Both the position numbers and the translations under genes were made by a program. DNA of 64,000 nucleotides from a virus: the IMG/VR virus record IMGVR_UViG_3300033552_000001, positions 32,001-96,000 of that record. One strand, 5' to 3'. This document shows positions 1-58,456 of the stretch, piece after piece (the stretch's first letter is position 1; each line of letters opens with the position of its first letter). The notes beneath the pieces are model-generated. The model was not told the DNA's origin and did not search any database. It saw nothing but the letters and a program-made list of their open reading frames with translations.

Positions 1-1
1 T

Positions 2-1105
2 GTTACAGTGACAGCTAATTCTCCTAGTGGTAAAGTATTAAGATATGGTGTTTTAGGATTTGTAGGATTTCAAACAAGTAATATATTTAATTTACCAAAC
101 AGTGATGTTAATGGATATACTTTCCAAGTAGTTGAATTAGGAAATGAAACTGATTGTAGAATTCAACAAAATAGAATGGTTTCTTGTGTTCCAACTACAC
201 CTGTTCCTCCTGCTACAACTTGTAATTTATTAATTAATAATGTTAATGTAGTTTGTAATTCAGCTAATAATGCTACCTTAACAGTAGTTGTTTCCAATCC
301 TAGTAATTATGTATTGCAGTATCAAATTGATAATTTAATAACTTGGCAAGACAGTAATGTATTTACTGGAATAACTAACAATGGAACTGGTTATGTTGTA
401 AGAGCAAGAAATAAAAATAACATAAGCTGTTCTGTTTCTAAAAACAATGTTTATGTAGATTGTCAAAATATACCAACTAATTGTGTTCAATTAACTAATT
501 TAGTAATATCAGGAAACAATTCAGTTGTTCCAAATAGTCAAAACAGTTATACAAGTAGTTATGCTGGTGCAGCACCTTACAGTTATGCATGGAGTATTTC
601 AGGTCAAGGAGTTTCAGTTGTAGGAGGTAGTAATGCTAGTTTTGCAACTTTCCAAATGGGAAATAGTAATGGTATAATAACACTCACTGTGACTGGATGT
701 GGAAATCCTGTAACAACTGAATTTATTTATGGATTACAAGCTACTCCAACACCAACACCAACTTCTTGTATTTGTACTGATTTAAATTTGTTAGATGGTG
801 GTGCAGTAGAAGCCTTTAGAGGTGGAAATAACGGAACACAAGATATAATTACTGTTCAAGTTCCTTATGATTTTAGTTCTAATTGTGGGGTTGTTAGAGC
901 AAATAGTTATACATTAAATGTTTATAATGGTACTACTTTATTAGGAACTATTAGTGAATCATTTCCTTTTGAAAATGCAGACCTTACAAAGTCATTCACT
1001 GTGCTTACTCCTACTACTGCAACAAGTTTAATTATGGAACTTAGTGCTGTATGTTTCTATGGACAATCTATTACATCAAGAAGAACATATCCTATTTTAC
1101 CATAA
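2..1105 (+). CDS. Virion/tail-associated beta-rich protein with PKD/Ig-like segments and a Pro-Thr linker; 5' end truncated by the window edge
   Basis: Frame is open from base 2 (gtt aca gtg...). Thr/Asn/Val/Cys-rich, PKD-like stretch YAGAAPYSYAWSISG, linker ATPTPTPT. Lies directly upstream of the tail module. Confidence 0.6.
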   Translation, partial: VTVTANSPSGKVLRYGVLGFVGFQTSNIFNLPNSDVNGYTFQVVELGNETDCRIQQNRMVSCVPTTPVPPATTCNLLINNVNVVCNSANNATLTVVVSNPSNYVLQYQIDNLITWQDSNVFTGITNNGTGYVVRARNKNNISCSVSKNNVYVDCQNIPTNCVQLTNLVISGNNSVVPNSQNSYTSSYAGAAPYSYAWSISGQGVSVVGGSNASFATFQMGNSNGIITLTVTGCGNPVTTEFIYGLQATPTPTPTSCICTDLNLLDGGAVEAFRGGNNGTQDIITVQVPYDFSSNCGVVRANSYTLNVYNGTTLLGTISESFPFENADLTKSFTVLTPTTATSLIMELSAVCFYGQSITSRRTYPILP

Positions 1106-13296: not shown

Positions 13297-14382
13297 ATGT
13301 ATAAAAGACTAAATATAAAATTATACCCAACAATAAAACAAAAAATTGTTTTAGATAATCATTTTTCTGGATATAGGTATTGTTATAATTTATGTTTATC
13401 TTACAAAATGCATCTTTGGAAATATTATAAAATAAATAAAACAGGATTTGATTTACAGACAGAATTATGCCAATTAATTAAAGAAGTTCCTTTTTTAAAT
13501 AATTGTAAAGTAGAATGTTTAAGACAAGCAGGTTTAGATGTTGAAAAAACTTATAAAAAATTCTATAAAGGAAGTGGTTTTCCTAAATTTAAATCTAAAA
13601 AAAATAAACAGTCTTTTATTGCACAACAATCTATTTTAATTAAAAAAGGTAGGTTGTCATTTTTTAAAAATTTAATTAAATTTAAAGATTCTGATAAGTA
13701 TTTTAATAAATTAAAAAGTTTAGAAATTAAACAATGTACTTTTAGTAAAGATAAAATTGGTAACTATTGGGCATCATGTCTTATAGAAGATAATGAAATA
13801 AAAATGTTACCTGTAGTTACTAATAAAATAGGATTTGATTTAGGGATTAAAGATTTTTTAATTACATCAAATAGTGAGTTTATACCTAATAATAAATTTA
13901 GTATCAAGAAACAATATAAACTTAGAAAGTTACAAAGAAAATTTAGTAAAACTAAAAAACATGGGAAAAACAGAGAAAAGCTTAGAATTAAAATAGCAAA
14001 ATTATTTCAAAAAATAACTAATCAAAAACAACACTTTTTTCACCAAGTTTCTAATAAATTAATAAGAGAAAATCAATCTATTAATTGTGAAACTTTAAAA
14101 GTAGAAAATATGATTAAAAACAGAAAATTAAGTAAATCAATTCAAGATGTTTCTTGGAGTAGTTTTATTTCAGTATTAGAATATAAATGTATTTGGTATA
14201 ATAAAGAATTAATTAGAATTCCTGCTTTTTATCCGAGTTCAAAATTATGTAGTAGTTGTGGAAATAAAAAAGATGATTTAAAACTTTCTGATAGAATATA
14301 TAATTGTAGTTGTGGAATATCTTTGAATAGAGATTTAAATGCTGCTATAAATATAAGAGATTATAAGGACAAATGTGCCTGA
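13297..14382 (+). CDS. tnpB: IS200/IS605-family RNA-guided endonuclease TnpB
   Basis: N-terminal HTH (KLYPTIKQK), RuvC-I GFDLGIK, RuvC-II CETL, Zn finger CSSCG...CSCG, RuvC-III RDLNAAINI; catalytic D/E/D appear intact. Confidence 0.95.
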   Translation: MYKRLNIKLYPTIKQKIVLDNHFSGYRYCYNLCLSYKMHLWKYYKINKTGFDLQTELCQLIKEVPFLNNCKVECLRQAGLDVEKTYKKFYKGSGFPKFKSKKNKQSFIAQQSILIKKGRLSFFKNLIKFKDSDKYFNKLKSLEIKQCTFSKDKIGNYWASCLIEDNEIKMLPVVTNKIGFDLGIKDFLITSNSEFIPNNKFSIKKQYKLRKLQRKFSKTKKHGKNREKLRIKIAKLFQKITNQKQHFFHQVSNKLIRENQSINCETLKVENMIKNRKLSKSIQDVSWSSFISVLEYKCIWYNKELIRIPAFYPSSKLCSSCGNKKDDLKLSDRIYNCSCGISLNRDLNAAINIRDYKDKCA

Positions 14383-47361: not shown

Positions 47362-50300
47362 ATGGCAATATATCAAGATTCAAGTTCAGGAGTACAAAAA
47401 ACAAATGTTTTAAATTTACCTGTAAATGGTAATATTTTAACTGCTGCTACAAGTGTAGACACTTATACAAATATTACTTTCTTACAAACTACTCCTGGAA
47501 TTACAGCAACTTTATTAAACCCAACTGTAACAACTGTACATAAAGTAATTGTATTAGAAAATTTACCTTCTTCAACCACTGCAATTAATATAGTGAGTGC
47601 TTTATCTTTACCTTTTAGTTTAGGAATTGGTAAATCTGTACAATTAGTTTGGAATGGTACAAATTGGAGTAAACTTATTGGAGATGGAAAAGTAACTTAT
47701 GGAATAGGTATTCCATTAACTATTTCTTCAGATAATCTTAATGATACTTATATTTTAACAGATTCTGGTATTAACACTGGAATTGTACAATCAGTATGGG
47801 TATTTGATGGATTATATTGGAAAAAAACAGTGACAATTATAGAGCCTGTTATTGAATTTTCAGTTAATACAAATCCTAATACAGCTCTTACTACTTTTTT
47901 ACCAAATATAGTAAAAAGAATAGATGTTCTTTATAGAAGTACAATTGATGGTAGTTTATGGAGCAGTGATGGTGTAAATTATATAAGCACAGTTGTTACT
48001 TTAAATAGAACAATTCAATCAATTTCAGCTACTGGTAATATTATAGCATGGAATAGTGTAGTGCAAATAGGAGCAACCCCTTTAACAACTAACATTATAC
48101 TTACTTTACCAAGTAATATTGGTTCTAAAAACAAAGATATTGTTTTTAAAAGACTTGATTCAACTTTATTCACAGTAACTATTCTTCCTTTTGGAACAGA
48201 AAGTGTACAAATTACAACTCCTGAAAGTATAAACAGTCAATATGGGGCATTAACAATACATTCAATAAGTAATATTAAATCCCAACAAACTGGAAATATA
48301 GGTATTTCAGGTAGTACTCCTACAATTAGTTATTTGCATGCTAAAAGAATTAATAGTAATCAGACTATTTCTTCAGGTTCATGGTCTAATAGAGATATAA
48401 TTTTAAATGGCTATGAAGGAAATATTCCTTATAATACAACTACAGGAGTAGCTACATTATCAGCAGGAACAGCTTATAAAATTACTGCTGGTCTTGGTAT
48501 TCTTGCTGGAGGTAATTATTTAATACAATATAGTTTAGTAGATGCTGTAACTAATGCTGTTATTAGTCCAGTAATTGAAATGGTTCAATCTAGTAATAAT
48601 ACTTTTAATGTTTCTGCTCCCACTTTAAATTTTATTTATAAACCATCAGTAACTCAAAGTGTAAAACTTAGATTTGGTGGTGGTACTAATATGCAATCTG
48701 GGGAATCAATTAGATTTGAGTTACTTAGTAATCTTACAATAACTCAAATTGGATCTACTCCTACTCTTGTAAATCAAGCATTAACAACAGGTGATTTTCC
48801 TGTAGGAGGAGCAATTCAAGCAACTGTAATTGATCCTTATGTATTAGGTTTTAATATACCACAAACCACACCAAATCAAACATTAGTTATACCAGCACCT
48901 GCTTCATCTACTGATAGTAGAATTATTTATATCAATAATACTGGAACTGCTGATTTTAAAATAGGAGATATTACAGTGGGTGTAAATAAAACTGTAGCTT
49001 ATATATGGAATGGAGTAATATGGAGTAATTTTAGTACAGAAGTAGTAGGTGCTGTATTGTCAGAATATGGTGAAAATTTAATTATTACTGATGCACAACC
49101 TCTTGGAGGATCAGTGTCAGATGTATTAGGTAGTTCATTTACATTGCCAACAGCAGGAATATGGGAAGTTGAATATTCATTAACAGGTAGAGTTGATTCT
49201 ACAGGTTCAAATTGGTATTCTTATATTACAAATACTTCTAATTTTGTAATTCCTAATAGTACAATTCAATCTTTTACTTCTGGTGGTAATAATGCCACTA
49301 TGACTTTAAACCAAAAAGTATTAATAAGTGTAACAGGTTCAACAAGTTATAAACTTAGGGCTGCTTGTCATCCTATTAGTGTTGGAAGTATTTTTAATAG
49401 TGTACCACTAGCAGGTGGTAATGGAGGTACATCAAGAATAACTTGGAAGAAAGTATCTGGTTATCTTCCTGTAATAGGAAGTACTGTAGATTATGTATTT
49501 TTAAAACCTACTAGTAATGGAGGTTCAGCAGTTGTTAATACTGATATTGGATTAGGAATTGCTTTGTCAGGAAATCTTACAGTAGTTAATAATACTATTT
49601 CATTATTGGCTGGTAAAACTTATGAATTAGAAGCTTTTTTAGACTATACAAGTTCTGTTGCTCCTACAAATAGTTATCTTGAATATTATTGGACAGATAA
49701 TGCTGGAATTAGACTTCCTAATTCAAGTGGAGGATTAGCAATACAAGCAAATTCATCAGATGGTAGTATATCAGTATTAGCAAAAGGTTATATCACAACT
49801 ACTATAGCTACTGTTGTAAAACTTAGAACAACATTAGTATCAGGAGCAGTTACATTAGTACCAAGTAATTCTTATGTAAGTGCTAAACAAGTTGGCAGTA
49901 CAGCTTTAATAACTAATACTTCAATCCCAATAAGTAATTTGCCAACTGGAGGTAATATACAAACTGCATTAATTGATCCTTACATTTTAGGATTTAATAT
50001 CAATCAAACAACTGCAAATCAGTTATTAAATATTCCAAATCCAACAACTGCCTCTGTAAATAGAATTATTTACATTAATAATGTTGGTACTGTTTCTTTT
50101 ATTACTAATGGACTTGCTATTACAGCAGGACAAACAGGTGCATTTATTTGGAATGGAGTAGCTTGGTCTACATTTTCAGCTCAAACATCTGGTTCAGTGC
50201 TATCTGAATATGGTGAAAATTTAGGAATTGTTAATAATCAAGGGGTAACTACAAGTATAACAGATGTTACAGGTAGTTCTTTTACAATTCCTTCTGCTGG

Positions 50301-52518
50301 TGTATGGGAAATTGAATATGCTTTAAGTGGACATGTTACAAATTCTGGACAATTGTTTTTTGCTTATCTTACTGATAATGCAAATATTACAATTCCCAAC
50401 ACTTCAATTCATTTACATTCTGGAGCTGCTAATGCTTCATTAACATTAAGTCAGAGAGCTGTAATTACTACAATAGGAGCAGCAACTTACAAACTTAAAG
50501 CAGGAGTTAGTTCTGGTGGTGGTACTATTAGTAATAGTTTACAAACTACAACTAATCCAGGAGGTAGTTCAAGAATTAATTGGAAAAAGATTTCAGGATT
50601 TGTTCCAGTGATAGGTCAAAGTGTAGAAACTACTTATGCTAAACAGACTACAACTCAAGGTACTCCTTCAAATGGAACTGCTTTAAACTTTGAAAATATT
50701 GATGGAACTACGCCATTTTCTGGAGGAACAACATTTACATTATCTGCTAATAAAACATATTATTTACAAGGTGCTGCTGGTATTATGTCAGGTTCAAATG
50801 GTGGATTTAGTGTACAGTTTTATAATGTAATTACTGGACTTTACATTGGTATTGCATCAATGACAAGTTCTCCAGCCAACGGACAAAATCATACACCTTC
50901 TGGTGGGGGAGTAGCAACTGCTAAAATTACACCAACTATAAATACACAAATACAATTAAGAATAATTAATATTCAAGGAACTGCTGGTATTATTGGTGGT
51001 TCAGGGCTTATAAATGCGGGTGCTGGTGTTGGTTCAGGAGATAGTGGTAATAGTGCGTCATGGTTAAAAATCACCCAAGAAGGTTCAAGTGCTTATTCAG
51101 TTCTTAATACTTATGTAGGGGCAACTTCAACTACTGCTGGAATAACAGGTGGAGTACCAGTATCAGCAATAGGAGATCAAGGAAAAGTATTATTAGCTGA
51201 TGGAACTTGGATAACTCCTTTTACAGAAATTAATAGAATTAAACCAGCAACAGCAACCAATACAATTGATAATACAAATTTTAATCAAACTTGGAACTGG
51301 TCAACTGCTACTACTCAAAATGCTTTAAATTTAGTAGCTCCTTCTTTAACAACTGGTGCTTTATTATCATTAATTTCATCGGCAACTACAACAGCATTAA
51401 CAATACCATCTGGCAAAGTTGGCATTGGGACTGCAACTCCAAATTCTACTGCAAAATTAGAAGTAGTTGGTAATATTCTTTCTACAACATTTACTAAATC
51501 AGGCGGTTTAGTTTCTCAAAATTTATTAGCGGATGGTACTGTTTTTGATAAATATAATAGCTCAATATCAACTGGAGTTTATTTTCAAAACTCAACACTT
51601 GCTACAACATTAATAGATGGAATGACTGTTACACCACCATTAGCAGGTACTTATAAAATAGACTTTAATGGTCAGTTCAATACCCAACTTGCTAATGTTA
51701 CTCAACAAGCCACAGTAGATTTGAATGCTTTGTATTTAGATTTAAATTCACAACCTGTTACTGGCATTTTTCCATTATTTACTTCAGGTACAACAATTAC
51801 TCCAGGAGTTTATTATGTTGCAGGAGCAGTTGCTATATCTGGAACAATAACTTTAAATGGAGGGGGTAATGCTAATTCAATATTTATATTTAGAACTGAT
51901 GCAGCATTATCTACTTCTGCAAGTTGTGTGTTTAATCTTGTGAATGGAGCTGCTGCTAAAAATATATTTTTTATAGCTGTTGGAGCAATAACAATTGGAG
52001 CAAGCAGTAATATATCTGGCACATTTATTTCTCCTTCAGCACCTATTAACATTGGTTCTGGAGCATACATAAATGGTAGATTTTATTCAATTGGTTCAGC
52101 TCTTACAGTGAATGGTAGTGTAATATTATCAGCACCTTCAACAACATTTGCAATGGGTGTTTTAGCTAACTTTATTTTATTTACAACATCAGGGACAGTT
52201 ACTAACAGTGGGGCAAATACATTTGTGGGAGATATTGGTACAAATAGTGGTCTTGTTACTGGATTTGAAGCAGCTACTGTTTCAGGTAGTATTTATTTAC
52301 CAAATCAAGGGGCTTCATTAGTTGCTGTTTCAATTTACATAGATAATGTTATAGTGAGTACTTCAACAAGAGAAAGAGTTGATACAATTGATAAAGTAGA
52401 TGTTATACTAACAGAAACAGTATCTCTTACAGCAGGTCAGGTTATTTCTATAAAAGTTTTAAATTCGATTGGTATTTCTAGATTTTATAATAGAAATTTA
52501 AGAGTAAGTAAAATATAA
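47362..52518 (+). CDS. Long tail fibre / receptor-binding protein with internal duplication and C-terminal DUF3494 (ice-binding-like) domain
   Basis: 1718 aa; repeated modules at about 48784-49494 and 49933-50637; GKVGIGTATP fibre motif; TITPGVY...NANSIFIFRT...NGAAAKNIFF...GRFYS DUF3494 signature. Confidence 0.8.
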   Translation: MAIYQDSSSGVQKTNVLNLPVNGNILTAATSVDTYTNITFLQTTPGITATLLNPTVTTVHKVIVLENLPSSTTAINIVSALSLPFSLGIGKSVQLVWNGTNWSKLIGDGKVTYGIGIPLTISSDNLNDTYILTDSGINTGIVQSVWVFDGLYWKKTVTIIEPVIEFSVNTNPNTALTTFLPNIVKRIDVLYRSTIDGSLWSSDGVNYISTVVTLNRTIQSISATGNIIAWNSVVQIGATPLTTNIILTLPSNIGSKNKDIVFKRLDSTLFTVTILPFGTESVQITTPESINSQYGALTIHSISNIKSQQTGNIGISGSTPTISYLHAKRINSNQTISSGSWSNRDIILNGYEGNIPYNTTTGVATLSAGTAYKITAGLGILAGGNYLIQYSLVDAVTNAVISPVIEMVQSSNNTFNVSAPTLNFIYKPSVTQSVKLRFGGGTNMQSGESIRFELLSNLTITQIGSTPTLVNQALTTGDFPVGGAIQATVIDPYVLGFNIPQTTPNQTLVIPAPASSTDSRIIYINNTGTADFKIGDITVGVNKTVAYIWNGVIWSNFSTEVVGAVLSEYGENLIITDAQPLGGSVSDVLGSSFTLPTAGIWEVEYSLTGRVDSTGSNWYSYITNTSNFVIPNSTIQSFTSGGNNATMTLNQKVLISVTGSTSYKLRAACHPISVGSIFNSVPLAGGNGGTSRITWKKVSGYLPVIGSTVDYVFLKPTSNGGSAVVNTDIGLGIALSGNLTVVNNTISLLAGKTYELEAFLDYTSSVAPTNSYLEYYWTDNAGIRLPNSSGGLAIQANSSDGSISVLAKGYITTTIATVVKLRTTLVSGAVTLVPSNSYVSAKQVGSTALITNTSIPISNLPTGGNIQTALIDPYILGFNINQTTANQLLNIPNPTTASVNRIIYINNVGTVSFITNGLAITAGQTGAFIWNGVAWSTFSAQTSGSVLSEYGENLGIVNNQGVTTSITDVTGSSFTIPSAGVWEIEYALSGHVTNSGQLFFAYLTDNANITIPNTSIHLHSGAANASLTLSQRAVITTIGAATYKLKAGVSSGGGTISNSLQTTTNPGGSSRINWKKISGFVPVIGQSVETTYAKQTTTQGTPSNGTALNFENIDGTTPFSGGTTFTLSANKTYYLQGAAGIMSGSNGGFSVQFYNVITGLYIGIASMTSSPANGQNHTPSGGGVATAKITPTINTQIQLRIINIQGTAGIIGGSGLINAGAGVGSGDSGNSASWLKITQEGSSAYSVLNTYVGATSTTAGITGGVPVSAIGDQGKVLLADGTWITPFTEINRIKPATATNTIDNTNFNQTWNWSTATTQNALNLVAPSLTTGALLSLISSATTTALTIPSGKVGIGTATPNSTAKLEVVGNILSTTFTKSGGLVSQNLLADGTVFDKYNSSISTGVYFQNSTLATTLIDGMTVTPPLAGTYKIDFNGQFNTQLANVTQQATVDLNALYLDLNSQPVTGIFPLFTSGTTITPGVYYVAGAVAISGTITLNGGGNANSIFIFRTDAALSTSASCVFNLVNGAAAKNIFFIAVGAITIGASSNISGTFISPSAPINIGSGAYINGRFYSIGSALTVNGSVILSAPSTTFAMGVLANFILFTTSGTVTNSGANTFVGDIGTNSGLVTGFEAATVSGSIYLPNQGASLVAVSIYIDNVIVSTSTRERVDTIDKVDVILTETVSLTAGQVISIKVLNSIGISRFYNRNLRVSKI

Positions 52519-53174: not shown

Positions 53175-53190
53175 TAATTTTGTATTTTTG
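53175..53190 (+). promoter_or_regulatory. Bacteroidota -7 boxes upstream of the homing endonuclease
   Basis: TAATTTTG (53175-53182) and TATTTTTG (53183-53190) both match TAnnTTTG. Confidence 0.5.
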
Positions 53191-53202
53191 TATAAAAAAA
53201 AT

Positions 53203-54183
53203 ATGACATCTGGAATTTATAAAATAACATCTCCTTCTAATAAGATTTACATAGGGCAATCTATGGATATAGAAAAAAGGTTTAGACAGTACAAAAATAA
53301 TCATTTTACTAAACAAGTAAGATTAAACCATTCTATAAATAAATATGGATTTGATAATCATGTACTTGAAATTATTGAAGAATGTTTATTTGAACAATTA
53401 AATTTTAGAGAAAGACATTGGCAAGAACATTATGATGTTATAGGAAAAAATGGATTAAATTGTGTTTTAGTTAATACTAAATATAAAAAAGCAGTTCCTT
53501 CTAAAGAGTCTATTGAAAAAAATAGAAATACACATAAAGAACTTTATAGACAAGGAAAAAGTCCTTTATGTAAATTACATTTGTTTCAAGTAGGTGTAAA
53601 TGCTTCTTTTTATGGTAGAAAACATTCTGATAAAGCAAAACAAGAAATGAGTCAAGCTAAATTAGGTATAAAATGGACAGATGAATTTAGAAGAATAAGA
53701 AAAGAAAATTATATAAAAGAAAATCATCCAAATTATAATAAATCTCATTCTGAAATAACAAGAAAAAAAATATCAGAAAGAGCAAAAGAAAGATTAAGTA
53801 TATTTCATTGTAATGCTAAAAGAGTTATTAACATAGAAACTTTAGAAGTATTTAAAGATGTTAAAACAGCTAATTTATCAATATTAGAATTAAACAAAAC
53901 TAGAAGAGAGTTAAGTAGAATTTTATCTTATGCAACTTATAATCCTTCTAAATTAATGTTTTGTGAAAACTATGAAAATTTAGAAAAAAGAGAAGAAGGA
54001 TTATTAAAAATGAATAAAGAATTTCCAATAAAAGCAGTTATAAATACAATCACAAAAGAAATTTTTAATACAGTAAAAGAAGCTGCAAAGTCAATAAGTA
54101 TGGATAAAGGAAGTTTAAGTAATAGATTAAGAAATGTAATTTTTAATAATACTGACTTTATATTTTTATCAAATTATAAATAA
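53203..54183 (+). CDS. Free-standing GIY-YIG homing endonuclease with NUMOD3 and NUMOD1-like DNA-binding repeats
   Basis: Likely start ATG 53203: SGIYKITSPSNKIYIGQS...R; NUMOD3 FYGRKHSDKAKQEMS and NYNKSHSEITRKKISE; C-terminal FNTVKEAAKSI. Confidence 0.9.
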   Translation: MTSGIYKITSPSNKIYIGQSMDIEKRFRQYKNNHFTKQVRLNHSINKYGFDNHVLEIIEECLFEQLNFRERHWQEHYDVIGKNGLNCVLVNTKYKKAVPSKESIEKNRNTHKELYRQGKSPLCKLHLFQVGVNASFYGRKHSDKAKQEMSQAKLGIKWTDEFRRIRKENYIKENHPNYNKSHSEITRKKISERAKERLSIFHCNAKRVINIETLEVFKDVKTANLSILELNKTRRELSRILSYATYNPSKLMFCENYENLEKREEGLLKMNKEFPIKAVINTITKEIFNTVKEAAKSISMDKGSLSNRLRNVIFNNTDFIFLSNYK

Positions 54184-54185
54184 AT

Positions 54186-54740
54186 ATGAACTTTACAAAA
54201 AAAGACTTTGAAGAATTTAAAATAGTTAATACTGATTTATATTTAAATTGGTTTAATTTGTATTGTGTAGAGTTTAAAATTAATACAGCAGATAGATTAC
54301 TTTGCTTCCTGCCTAATTTACTACATGAATCTAATAATTTTGAATGGGTTAAAGAAATTTTACCTAAAAACAATCCTATTTATGTAAAAAAACTTGGTAA
54401 TTATTTTGGCAGAGGGCTTATGCAAGTCACTCATCAAAAAAACTATAAATTATTTAATGATTGGTGTAATTTAAATATTAAAGAATTTAATAAAGATTTT
54501 ATTAAAAACCCTGAATTATTACAAACTCCACAATATGCTGTATTATCGGCATTTTGGTTTTGGAAAAGTAATAATTTAGAAAAATATGCGGACAGAAAAG
54601 ATTTTTTAAATGTATGCTCATTAATTAATACAGGCAGAATACAAAAGCCTTCAAAGCCACATAAAATAAATGGATTGGATGACAGAATTAAAAAGTATGC
54701 AGTCATTGAAAAATGGTGCATTAAAAACAAAATAACATAA
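54186..54740 (+). CDS. Glycoside hydrolase family 19 (chitinase-like) endolysin
   Basis: LHES...E, YFGRGLMQVTHQKNY, NPELL...AVLSAFWFW, IN...NGLDDR motifs. Confidence 0.9.
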   Translation: MNFTKKDFEEFKIVNTDLYLNWFNLYCVEFKINTADRLLCFLPNLLHESNNFEWVKEILPKNNPIYVKKLGNYFGRGLMQVTHQKNYKLFNDWCNLNIKEFNKDFIKNPELLQTPQYAVLSAFWFWKSNNLEKYADRKDFLNVCSLINTGRIQKPSKPHKINGLDDRIKKYAVIEKWCIKNKIT

Positions 54741-56698: not shown

Positions 56699-58456
56699 AT
56701 GTCAAGAGCAAGATTAAATACACAATTAGAGGTTTCAAAACAACCTAATATGATATTAGCTTCTAATTCACAAAATGGAGCTAATGAAATGGTGTATAAG
56801 GAATTTAACACAACCTTAGCAAATTTAAAAACATCAACAAATCTTTTTTATCCATTTGTAGTGATTACAGATATAGGTAAAGAAGGTATGTTTAAATATG
56901 ATAGTACTGACACAACTTCTGTAAATGATGACATTTACATGATTGTTGATGGTGCTGGTAAAAGATATAAAAGAACTTCTGATATTGTAGATACTAAATT
57001 ACATAAAGTGTTAACAATTGCTAATTTACAAACATATACTCAATCTATACTTTCTTATTTTGATGGAAGTATTTGGGAAAAAAAGGGAGGTAATGTAGTA
57101 AGTAATGGTGGTACTTTTGCTGGTACAATTATACAAGTCAATACTTCATTTTATTGGGAAAGAAAGGTTGAGAATTATGTATATCCAGAATGGTTTGGTG
57201 CTAATACTGCAAATACTAATAACAGTGCTGAATTACAAAAAACTATAGATTATGCTATTGCAAATAATTTTTCTGTTAAGTTGACAAGAAAAGCAGGAGG
57301 TAGTTTGGGTCTTTATAAAATAACATCACCTTTAACTATTAGTAATAGAATTTCAATTATTGGAGATGGTATCAATTATTGTGGTATATTTTGCATTGGT
57401 TGTCATGGATTTGTTATTAGTGAGGGGGTTAATAATGTTACAATAAAAGATTTAGCAATAATTGCAGGTACAAGATATACAACAACTGTTCATAACTTTA
57501 TTGCTATACAAACTTTAGGTACTTTTGCTTCTCAAAACTATTGGCATATTTATAAAGATTTATTTCTTGATGGTTTTAGATGGGGAATACAATGTCCATA
57601 TACTTGGTCTACTACAATTAACAGTGTTACAAGTGTTTTTTGTGGTGGTGGTATTAATGCCCCAGGACAATCAGTCAATAACTTTGTTTCTCAATGTCAA
57701 TTCACAGGAAATAATGAATCTGCTTCTATTGGTATTCAGCTTGGTGATGGTGCAATGGTTATTGAAGGTTGGGGAATTACAGATTGTTTAATTGCAAATT
57801 TTGCAGTAGGAATACAAATCAATGGAGGAAGTAATATCACCATCAGAGGAAATATCATTGATTTCTTTTCACAAAGAGGAATTTTCCTTCAAAGTAATGC
57901 TATTGGAGCTTCTATGAATTGTACTATTTCAGAAAACTATTTGGCTTGTAGTGCTGTAGGTTCAACAGGTATTTGGTTATTAAATAATTTTGCAGGCTCA
58001 ATTTCACAAAACAGAGGTAATACTATTAGTGATAATCAAATTCTTTTTTACAGTCCAAGTTCATTAGCTTATGGAATTTATGTTTCAGGAACAGCTGAAA
58101 TAAGCAATACAATTACAGGAAATAAAATTGAAGCTACTTCATTTGATTTAAGAGTGACTACAGGAATTAACACTGTTGTATCCAATAATAATTTTAAAGG
58201 AGCTGGTTATTTTGGAGATATTGCTGTTAATTATTATGGAAATAGAGGAATTATCCAATCAAGTGCTGTTACTTTATTTCAATCAAACGGAAAAACAAAA
58301 ATTTATTATGATAGTGTAATTCCAACAACAGGAACTTATACAATAGGAGATATATTATATAATGTAACTCCAGCTCCTTCTGTTTATGTTGGATGGGTAT
58401 GTACTGTAAGTGGGACTCCTGGAACATGGAAAGGATTTGGACTAATACAAACATAA
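56699..58456 (+). CDS. Tailspike / right-handed beta-helix depolymerase (pectate-lyase-like)
   Basis: YVYPEWFGA...NSAELQKTIDYA...GLYKITSPL pectate_lyase_3-type start followed by beta-helix repeats; C-terminal GWVCTVSGTPGTWKGFG. Confidence 0.85.
   Translation: MSRARLNTQLEVSKQPNMILASNSQNGANEMVYKEFNTTLANLKTSTNLFYPFVVITDIGKEGMFKYDSTDTTSVNDDIYMIVDGAGKRYKRTSDIVDTKLHKVLTIANLQTYTQSILSYFDGSIWEKKGGNVVSNGGTFAGTIIQVNTSFYWERKVENYVYPEWFGANTANTNNSAELQKTIDYAIANNFSVKLTRKAGGSLGLYKITSPLTISNRISIIGDGINYCGIFCIGCHGFVISEGVNNVTIKDLAIIAGTRYTTTVHNFIAIQTLGTFASQNYWHIYKDLFLDGFRWGIQCPYTWSTTINSVTSVFCGGGINAPGQSVNNFVSQCQFTGNNESASIGIQLGDGAMVIEGWGITDCLIANFAVGIQINGGSNITIRGNIIDFFSQRGIFLQSNAIGASMNCTISENYLACSAVGSTGIWLLNNFAGSISQNRGNTISDNQILFYSPSSLAYGIYVSGTAEISNTITGNKIEATSFDLRVTTGINTVVSNNNFKGAGYFGDIAVNYYGNRGIIQSSAVTLFQSNGKTKIYYDSVIPTTGTYTIGDILYNVTPAPSVYVGWVCTVSGTPGTWKGFGLIQT

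Follow-up and report, generated by a model that had tools for sequence, protein, structure and literature searches.

A circularly permuted DUF3494 domain within a TNF/C1q-like jelly roll at the C-terminal end of a fibre-like phage protein

Proteins of the ice-binding family DUF3494 (Pfam PF11999) share a long helix and a beta-solenoid, and here we describe a circularly permuted homologue of this fold in a fibre-like virion protein from IMG/VR virus record IMGVR_UViG_3300033552_000001. The stretch of DNA analysed (the window, 64,000 nucleotides) comprises bases 32001-96000 of the 130,130-base record, which is estimated to be 88% complete. The last 318 residues of the 1718-residue protein form a beta-sandwich of the TNF/C1q-like jelly-roll type with the DUF3494 homologue inserted in one of its loops, and the inserted domain is permuted, so that the coil that begins the canonical domain comes last. 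The same 318-residue module recurs at the ends of proteins whose other parts are unrelated. We consider it likely that the virion protein ends in a composite adhesion head, jelly roll plus permuted insert, for a polymer on the host surface.

The whole protein is referred to as P0001 and its C-terminal 318 amino acids (window positions 51562-52515) as P0002; residue numbers are those of P0002 unless P0001 is named. The parts of the gene, defined with the open reading frame (ORF) list, an AlphaFold2 model and profile searches, are as follows.

47362-52518, + strand: whole gene, encoding the 1718-residue fibre-like virion protein P0001 with the module at its C-terminus (from the ORF list and its translation).
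51562-51693, + strand: residues 1-44, the first part of the host TNF/C1q-like jelly roll, with four strands of which the last spans 29-42 (AlphaFold2 model; fold matches of about 110 residues; positions 1-49 of the host-domain profile).
51694-51747, + strand: long alpha-helix of the DUF3494 domain and new N-terminus of the permuted domain, residues 45-62 (DSSP helix 46-62; aligned with the corresponding helix in 5UYT and in further ice-binding proteins).
51748-52125, + strand: beta-solenoid coils of the DUF3494 domain, residues 63-188 (PF11999 profile positions 48-207; VIA superpositions over model residues 45..190).
52126-52155, + strand: short linker from the old C-terminus to the old N-terminus, residues 189-198, equivalent to the inter-domain junction of tandem DUF3494 proteins (lowest model confidence, in block 191-200).
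52156-52311, + strand: relocated ‘initial coil’, now the last coil or coils of a continuous solenoid, residues 199-250 (canonical-domain profile; high model confidence; beta-helices align through 249/250).
52312-52515, + strand: C-terminal part of the host jelly roll and end of the protein, residues 251-318, five strands (AlphaFold2 strands 253-317; positions 41-111 of the host-domain profile; fold matches).

The domain was first proposed in a sequence-only reading of the window, which described a tail fibre tipped by a permuted DUF3494 domain at 51682-52296 (residues 41-245), with the displaced coil at 52147-52266 (residues 196-235). All of the peptides quoted there lie in frame within the ORF at 47362-52518.

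Membership of the insert in the DUF3494 family, as then suggested, is borne out both by the Pfam profile and by solved structures. PF11999 matches P0002 with 100.8 bits (cut-off 28.7; E value 1e-28), the one PF11999 match in the window. Coverage is partial: only positions 48-207 of the 208 in the profile are aligned, on residues 37-188. Searched by itself against Pfam, the trailing fragment gave no match that passed the HMMER filters. Solved DUF3494 chains matched in sequence by phmmer number 25, the best being 5UYT (E 2e-50, 35-37% identity), the two-domain antifreeze protein IBPv from the Flavobacteriaceae isolate 3519-10 (PMC5673226). In the canonical topology, an initial coil is followed by the helix and then by a reverse stack of coils that ends beside the initial coil (PMC11645318). 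This chain order is absent from the window domain, where the homologue of the initial coil follows the stack: phmmer aligns the trailing residues 198-242 with residues 6-48 of the 5UYT chain, which are the initial coil of its domain A. Moreover, residues 46-245 align without a break to 5UYT residues 56-265, which cover domain A from the helix through the coils, then the junction, then the coil that opens domain B.

The clearest evidence for permutation comes from a profile built from 70 canonical first domains. Searched with the native sequence, this canonical profile matches twice and out of order, positions 50-207 on residues 35-192 (144.8 bits) and then positions 3-62 on residues 194-252 (49.3 bits, independent E value 2e-17). 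When the insert is re-permuted by moving residues 194-250 to the front, a single full-length match results (positions 5-205, 195.6 bits). Because the profile matches are out of order natively and become one match on re-permutation, the window domain, as judged from its sequence, is a permuted homologue of DUF3494 and not a canonical member. The homology between the trailing segment and the N-terminal coil of canonical domains, seen with phmmer, with this profile and in the clusters described next, goes far beyond chance. An exhaustive homologue search of 1.84 billion representatives gave the same picture. Among the best 149 clusters, which were inspected, 97 are canonical or tandem DUF3494 proteins, and in these the segment matching query residues of about 190-250 directly precedes the segment matching about 45-195. 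The circular permutation put forward in the sequence-only reading thus stands.

The AlphaFold2 model of P0002 was made with a 48-sequence alignment of module homologues and has a mean predicted local distance difference test score (pLDDT) of 95.7 and a predicted template modelling score of 0.81. Its sole dip in pLDDT, to 84, falls in block 191-200, and residues 201-250 score 92-97. In the model, the helix at 46-62 lies alongside a right-handed triangular solenoid, the arrangement of the IBP-1 fold, and VIA matches every solved ice-binding protein of the family to model residues 45..190, with Z scores of 16-19.5 and a root-mean-square deviation (rmsd) of 1.2-1.9 Å over 141-153 residues. IBPv is the closest (Z 19.5, rmsd 1.9 Å over 153 residues) and shares the triangular beta-solenoid with a long flanking helix. 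It differs in consisting of two canonical domains, each with initial coil, helix and reverse stack, whereas the window has one domain with the helix first and the initial coil last. IBPv is also secreted as a free protein, and its thermal hysteresis has been measured, whereas the window domain is embedded in the jelly roll of a 1718-residue phage protein and is known here from sequence and model. The helix and coils of the single-domain IBP-1 proteins FfIBP (4NU2), ColAFP (3WP9), TisAFP (3VN3), LeIBP (3UYU), SfIBP_1 (6BG8), AnpIBP (7BWX) and EfcIBP (6EIO) superpose as well (Z 16-17.7, rmsd 1.2-1.8 Å, 141-149 residues), but their first 50-60 residues or so, the initial coil, have no sequential counterpart, the equivalent in the window following the last coil.

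The trailing segment could be read instead as the remnant of a truncated second DUF3494 repeat, so that the domain would be an N-terminally truncated DUF3494 with a stump behind it. The sequence does look like a slice of a tandem protein, given the alignment of query residues 46-245 with 5UYT 56-265, but the model and the homologues make this explanation highly improbable. In a search of 48,161 representative chains, uninterrupted right-handed beta-helices (the two-partner-secretion domains 4I84, 1RWR, 8CPK, 8VBA and 2ODL, and the adhesin 4WA0) match the stretch 63..249/250 of the model, with 153-163 residues aligned and Z scores of 10.9-12.1. Since residues 63-190 supply only 128 residues, at least 25-35 of those aligned must come from the trailing part, and the solenoid is thus continuous through it. 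A sequential Foldseek alignment to the tandem protein 5UYT through the junction spans 213 columns with an rmsd of 17.9 Å, so the trailing coil is not positioned as the coil of the next domain is in a two-domain protein. pLDDT values of 96-97 are reached within residues 201-250. Furthermore, the segment is as conserved as the solenoid (mean pairwise identity 0.431 versus 0.416) and is present in all 67 module proteins, and its absence would leave the last turn of the solenoid without the capping coil that every solved structure has. The trailing segment accordingly appears to complete the solenoid, as originally suggested, rather than to begin a second domain.

As a permuted domain, the insert runs from the long helix through the solenoid coils to the coil that leads in every solved family member, with the old termini joined by a linker of about 10 residues. 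Permutation makes the solenoid continuous, and the new ends of the domain would fall at a former peptide bond and so lie side by side, ready for insertion into a loop. That the new termini are brought together in this way would follow from the logic of the permutation and from the fold matches to the model.

The domain in which the insert sits can be recognized by fold. Residues 1-44 and 251-318 fold together as one beta-sandwich in the AlphaFold2 model, and the two flanks jointly align, over the model range 1..318, to TNF-like lectins: PLTL (9IB6/9IB7; Z 15.0-15.2, 110 of 133-134 residues, rmsd 1.6 Å) and the N-terminal domain of BC2L-C (2WQ4; Z 15.1), with 110 of about 130 residues aligned at Z 15 and rmsd 1.6-1.8 Å overall. 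The beta-sandwich into which the domain had been said to be inserted is thus a TNF/C1q-like jelly roll. Weaker fold matches (Z 11-14) include BclA, ExsFA, C1q, EDA, the short-tail-fibre binding domain of cyanophage A-1(L) (8KE9, Z 11.9), a cyanophage A4 tail protein (9K09) and a Bdellovibrio fibre tip (8OKW). The 44 + 68 flanking residues make up a jelly roll of the ten-strand type seen in the TNF, C1q and BclA heads 9IB6/9IB7, 2WQ4, 1WCK, 7R5I and 8KE9 (Z 12-15, 100-113 residues, rmsd 1.6-2.2 Å). Sequence identity to these heads is 9-18%, with no sequence-family match: Pfam searches for C1q or TNF membership gave nothing besides PF11999 on P0002 (E up to 1) or on the flanks alone (E up to 10). 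In the model, then, the host domain resembles TNF/C1q heads at the level of fold only. The window protein also differs in carrying a domain of about 206 residues within a loop, which none of those head structures does.

The insert lies between the strand at 29-42 and the strand at 253-260, the fourth and fifth strands, and the insertion point would by strand count be the C-D loop, probably on the side away from the chain termini and the stalk. TNF/C1q-like heads are found at the distal ends of fibres, usually as trimeric binders of carbohydrates or surfaces; the fold tips other phage fibres as well as Bacillus BclA and is normally trimeric. By analogy, the head of the window protein is probably a trimer too. 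No significant similarity was detected between the host jelly roll and the upstream domains of P0001 (best E 0.069), and a profile of the two host halves found no uninterrupted homologue of the host domain among the 2591 ORFs of the window and of the IMG/VR loci introduced below.

The jelly roll with its insert recurs as one module. In 52 of the best 149 clusters the whole module is aligned in one stretch, nearly always at the C-terminus, and overall at least 67 proteins contain it (counted as clusters at 50% identity). These proteins are 299-1731 residues long and are unrelated to one another in their N-terminal parts. The profile of the host halves found the same split position in every module case, with the halves about 200 residues apart. 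A scan of IMG/VR confirmed 136 stretches encoding DUF3494; 80 loci were kept, and among these the full module is present in 21 ORFs. A single-protein query against viral contigs gave no confirmed match, and it was an alignment query that found the relatives. Contigs of isolate genomes were searched by alignment, with a host-domain motif as the pattern, and yielded no relative, a search that does not settle whether the module is present in isolates. Five of the viral loci contain what may be other arrangements of the permuted domain in a different scaffold: ORFs of 475 residues (L016-L019) and one of 1134 residues (L021) match query residues of about 51-259 or 61-309, without the N-terminal host half.

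Three of the viral contigs carry adjacent pairs of module genes, at 5048-8957 in L001, 4637-8546 in L002 and 6713-8939 in L008; the L001 pair encodes proteins of 947 and 359 residues, and neighbours of the module in L001 match portal, tail-spike and minor-tail families. Such paired genes resemble receptor-binding-protein cassettes, an analogy that may bear on function. The shared unit may also be larger than the module as defined here. The motif VGIGT..P occurs at P0001 residues 1353-1362 (window 51418-51447), 48 residues ahead of the module, and right after the signal peptide in five homologues that have one (P0185, P0168, P0164, P0075 and P0132), for three of which the source tables list a further Pfam family, PF26696. 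Since the motif is common to the phage protein and the signal-peptide homologues, the unit, by sequence, may exceed 318 residues.

How the permutation might have arisen is suggested by the nearest canonical relatives, which, as far as sequence comparison goes, are tandem DUF3494 proteins; this fits permutation by duplication followed by trimming. The domain would then be a slice of a tandem DUF3494 array, made up of the helix and coils of repeat n and the first coil of repeat n+1. Because the stretch of a tandem array that extends from one repeat's helix as far as the initial coil of the following repeat already has the order of a permuted domain, this route predicts continuous alignment across the junctions of tandem proteins. 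Such alignment was found in dozens of proteins (e.g. query residues 46-248 on residues 81-297 of P0036), a result compatible with the duplication-trimming route, though not a record of the historical event. Duplication followed by trimming thus seems the most economical origin. In a FastTree phylogeny of 364 solenoid cores, the window domain falls in a clade of 30 module domains with support 98, and an approximately unbiased test on a subsample of 80 cores did not reject a single module clade (difference in log likelihood 3.9, p 0.437). The shared host domain and the identical junctions favour one origin, short of proof.

We now turn to what the protein is and what its head might bind. The setting suits a tail fibre: the record is viral, the window also encodes virion structural proteins, the protein has internal repeats and its C-terminal head is shared by proteins with unrelated N-termini. 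Chunked self-BLAST of P0001 found repeats with E values of 1e-12 to 1e-41 overall (the whole-protein self-BLAST gave the identity match alone). Residues 434-762 of P0001 are similar to 819-1133 at 35-55% identity, a small domain at 18-105 occurs again at 478-557 and 859-938, and residues 738-832 resemble 953-1056. Searches of Pfam, PHROG and PDB sequences with the fibre body (P0001 residues 1-1400) were empty, save for a sub-threshold FNG domain at 1077-1148. Of the designation ‘tail fibre’ in the sequence-only reading, therefore, the context and the fold are in keeping with it, but a match to a tail-fibre family is missing (no PHROG family).

That missing match is one reason to consider that the protein could be, instead of a receptor-binding fibre, some other decoration of the virion surface or a carried adhesin that sticks in a general way to particles, slime or algal surfaces. 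Proteins that have a signal peptide and look cellular likewise terminate in the module, the insert shows conservation and not hypervariability, and a further candidate receptor-binding protein lies downstream, where 56699-58456 encodes a beta-helix protein that matches a tail-fibre PHROG. Against this, TNF/C1q-like heads are typical of fibre tips (8KE9, 9K09 and 8OKW), the module is C-terminal on long, repeat-rich proteins and lies beside tail genes in other viral contigs, and the adjacent paired module genes resemble cassettes of receptor-binding proteins. We judge such non-specific decoration to be improbable.

Within the architecture accepted here, we rank host-surface adhesion first, with moderate confidence, ahead of ice binding and then of non-specific decoration. 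It comes first because host recognition normally resides in the distal head of a long virion protein rich in repeats, and because relatives carry paired, cassette-like copies. The head would present up to three beta-solenoids distally as flat adhesion surfaces, and these could bind a polymer of the host-cell surface, the host probably being of Bacteroidota type.

Ice binding deserves consideration since the closest solved relatives (5UYT, FfIBP, ColAFP and SfIBP_1) are proven antifreeze or ice-binding proteins. The displayed DUF3494 domain would in that case be a working ice-binding site, and the virion, or a fibre freed at lysis, would adsorb to ice or shape it in a cold habitat. Activity of IBPv domain B needs a row of small residues on the flat ice-binding face (A364, A391, A410 and G429) plus S431 (PMC5673226), and in the phmmer alignment these map to A115, A142, P161, A180 and T182, with A115 and A142 invariant in the module family. 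Alanine also stands at the position where the bulky L174 of IBPv domain A lowers activity. However, one of the four row positions is a proline (Pro161), and conserved alanine or glycine at these positions is a structural feature of the whole family and not diagnostic. The stronger conservation of the insert relative to its scaffold is what an unchanging ligand would lead one to expect, and PF11999 genes are known on Arctic viral contigs (PMC11515562), but DUF3494 is also common among organisms of ice-free habitats, in which no function is known for it (PMC11645318), and the tip of a fibre is the canonical place for host recognition. On balance, a working ice-binding site is unlikely. The more specific notion that the virion itself is the ice binder, with three permuted solenoids per fibre tip anchoring particles to ice or to the walls of brine channels where cold-adapted hosts attach, is doubtful; if it were true, the adhesion module would recognize the physical habitat and not a host receptor. 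The attachment of particles to ice or biofilm that was raised in the sequence-only reading is speculative.

Several results weigh against a host-adhesion fibre head, or against steps of the argument leading to it. No PHROG family was found for P0001 or P0002, and no Pfam tail-fibre match for P0001. About 16 module proteins begin with a signal peptide, so that the module is not phage-specific; judged solely by these N-termini, its carriers there look cellular. A tblastn search with the module against 50,697 records of cultured phages in INPHARED gave no match, and BFVD holds canonical DUF3494 models from giant viruses with no model of the full module; with no counterpart in either collection, the function is not anchored by any experimentally studied fibre. 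Mean pairwise identity across the module family is 0.415 for the insert versus 0.329 for the host scaffold, and a fast-evolving receptor-contact surface would not usually exceed its scaffold in conservation. As to the model, the structure alignments are sequential, and the packing of the trailing coil is deduced from alignment ranges and pLDDT. Finally, the tree of solenoid cores does not gather all module domains into a single clade, and its backbone support is 25-87. With these points taken into account, a composite head for adhesion to the host surface is still the explanation that we favour.

The surroundings of the gene in the window include several other features. One structural protein is 25-31% identical to proteins of Cellulophaga phages phi17:2 and phi4:1, of a Leptolyngbya phage and to crAss-like ring or tail-tubular proteins; on this one protein, the virus appears distantly similar to crAss-like and Cellulophaga phages. 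A homing-endonuclease-like gene with GIY-YIG and NUMOD3 domains (53188-54183) lies between the fibre gene and an endolysin gene. The endolysin (54186-54740) is of the chitinase-like GH19 type, with strong PHROG endolysin matches and tblastn matches in 1947 phage records. Within a block of large virion genes, 13297-14382 encodes a protein of 361 residues with a strong PHROG ‘transposase’ match (phrog_506, E 3e-97). Elsewhere in the window, 1134-2156 encodes a protein of 340 residues, whose N-terminal half is similar to PHROGs annotated as ferrochelatase and whose C-terminal half is similar to 2OG-Fe(II) oxygenase. Three consecutive giant ORFs at 21926-43216 (2278, 2786 and 1711 residues) have no PHROG match, and the 2786-residue ORF, which was searched further, matched neither PDB sequences nor, by tblastn, any record of the phage collection.

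Full-text literature searches found no paper that joins DUF3494 or ice binding with circular permutation, and an account of non-canonical DUF3494 proteins (Raymond 2024, PMC11645318) mentions neither permutation nor phage. With the present domain, the IBP-1/DUF3494 fold would have its first natural circular permutant on record, and a textbook case of permutation by duplication, in which placing the new termini at a former peptide bond makes insertion into a loop possible. The Arctic viral genes described by Rahlff et al. 2024 (PMC11515562) are, like the gene described here, PF11999 genes on uncultured phage contigs, with links to Flavobacteriales, and were read as ‘ice-binding-like’ auxiliary metabolic genes for cryoprotection of the host; that work reports no virion or fibre location, permutation or insertion, whereas the window domain is in a structural, fibre-like protein. 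PF11999 on viral contigs, so far interpreted as cryoprotection genes, can thus be part of the adsorption apparatus, which changes how such genes ought to be annotated. Being widespread, in phage fibres as well as signal-peptide proteins, the module also offers a compact construct of 318 residues with which to ask what DUF3494 domains bind when they do not bind ice.

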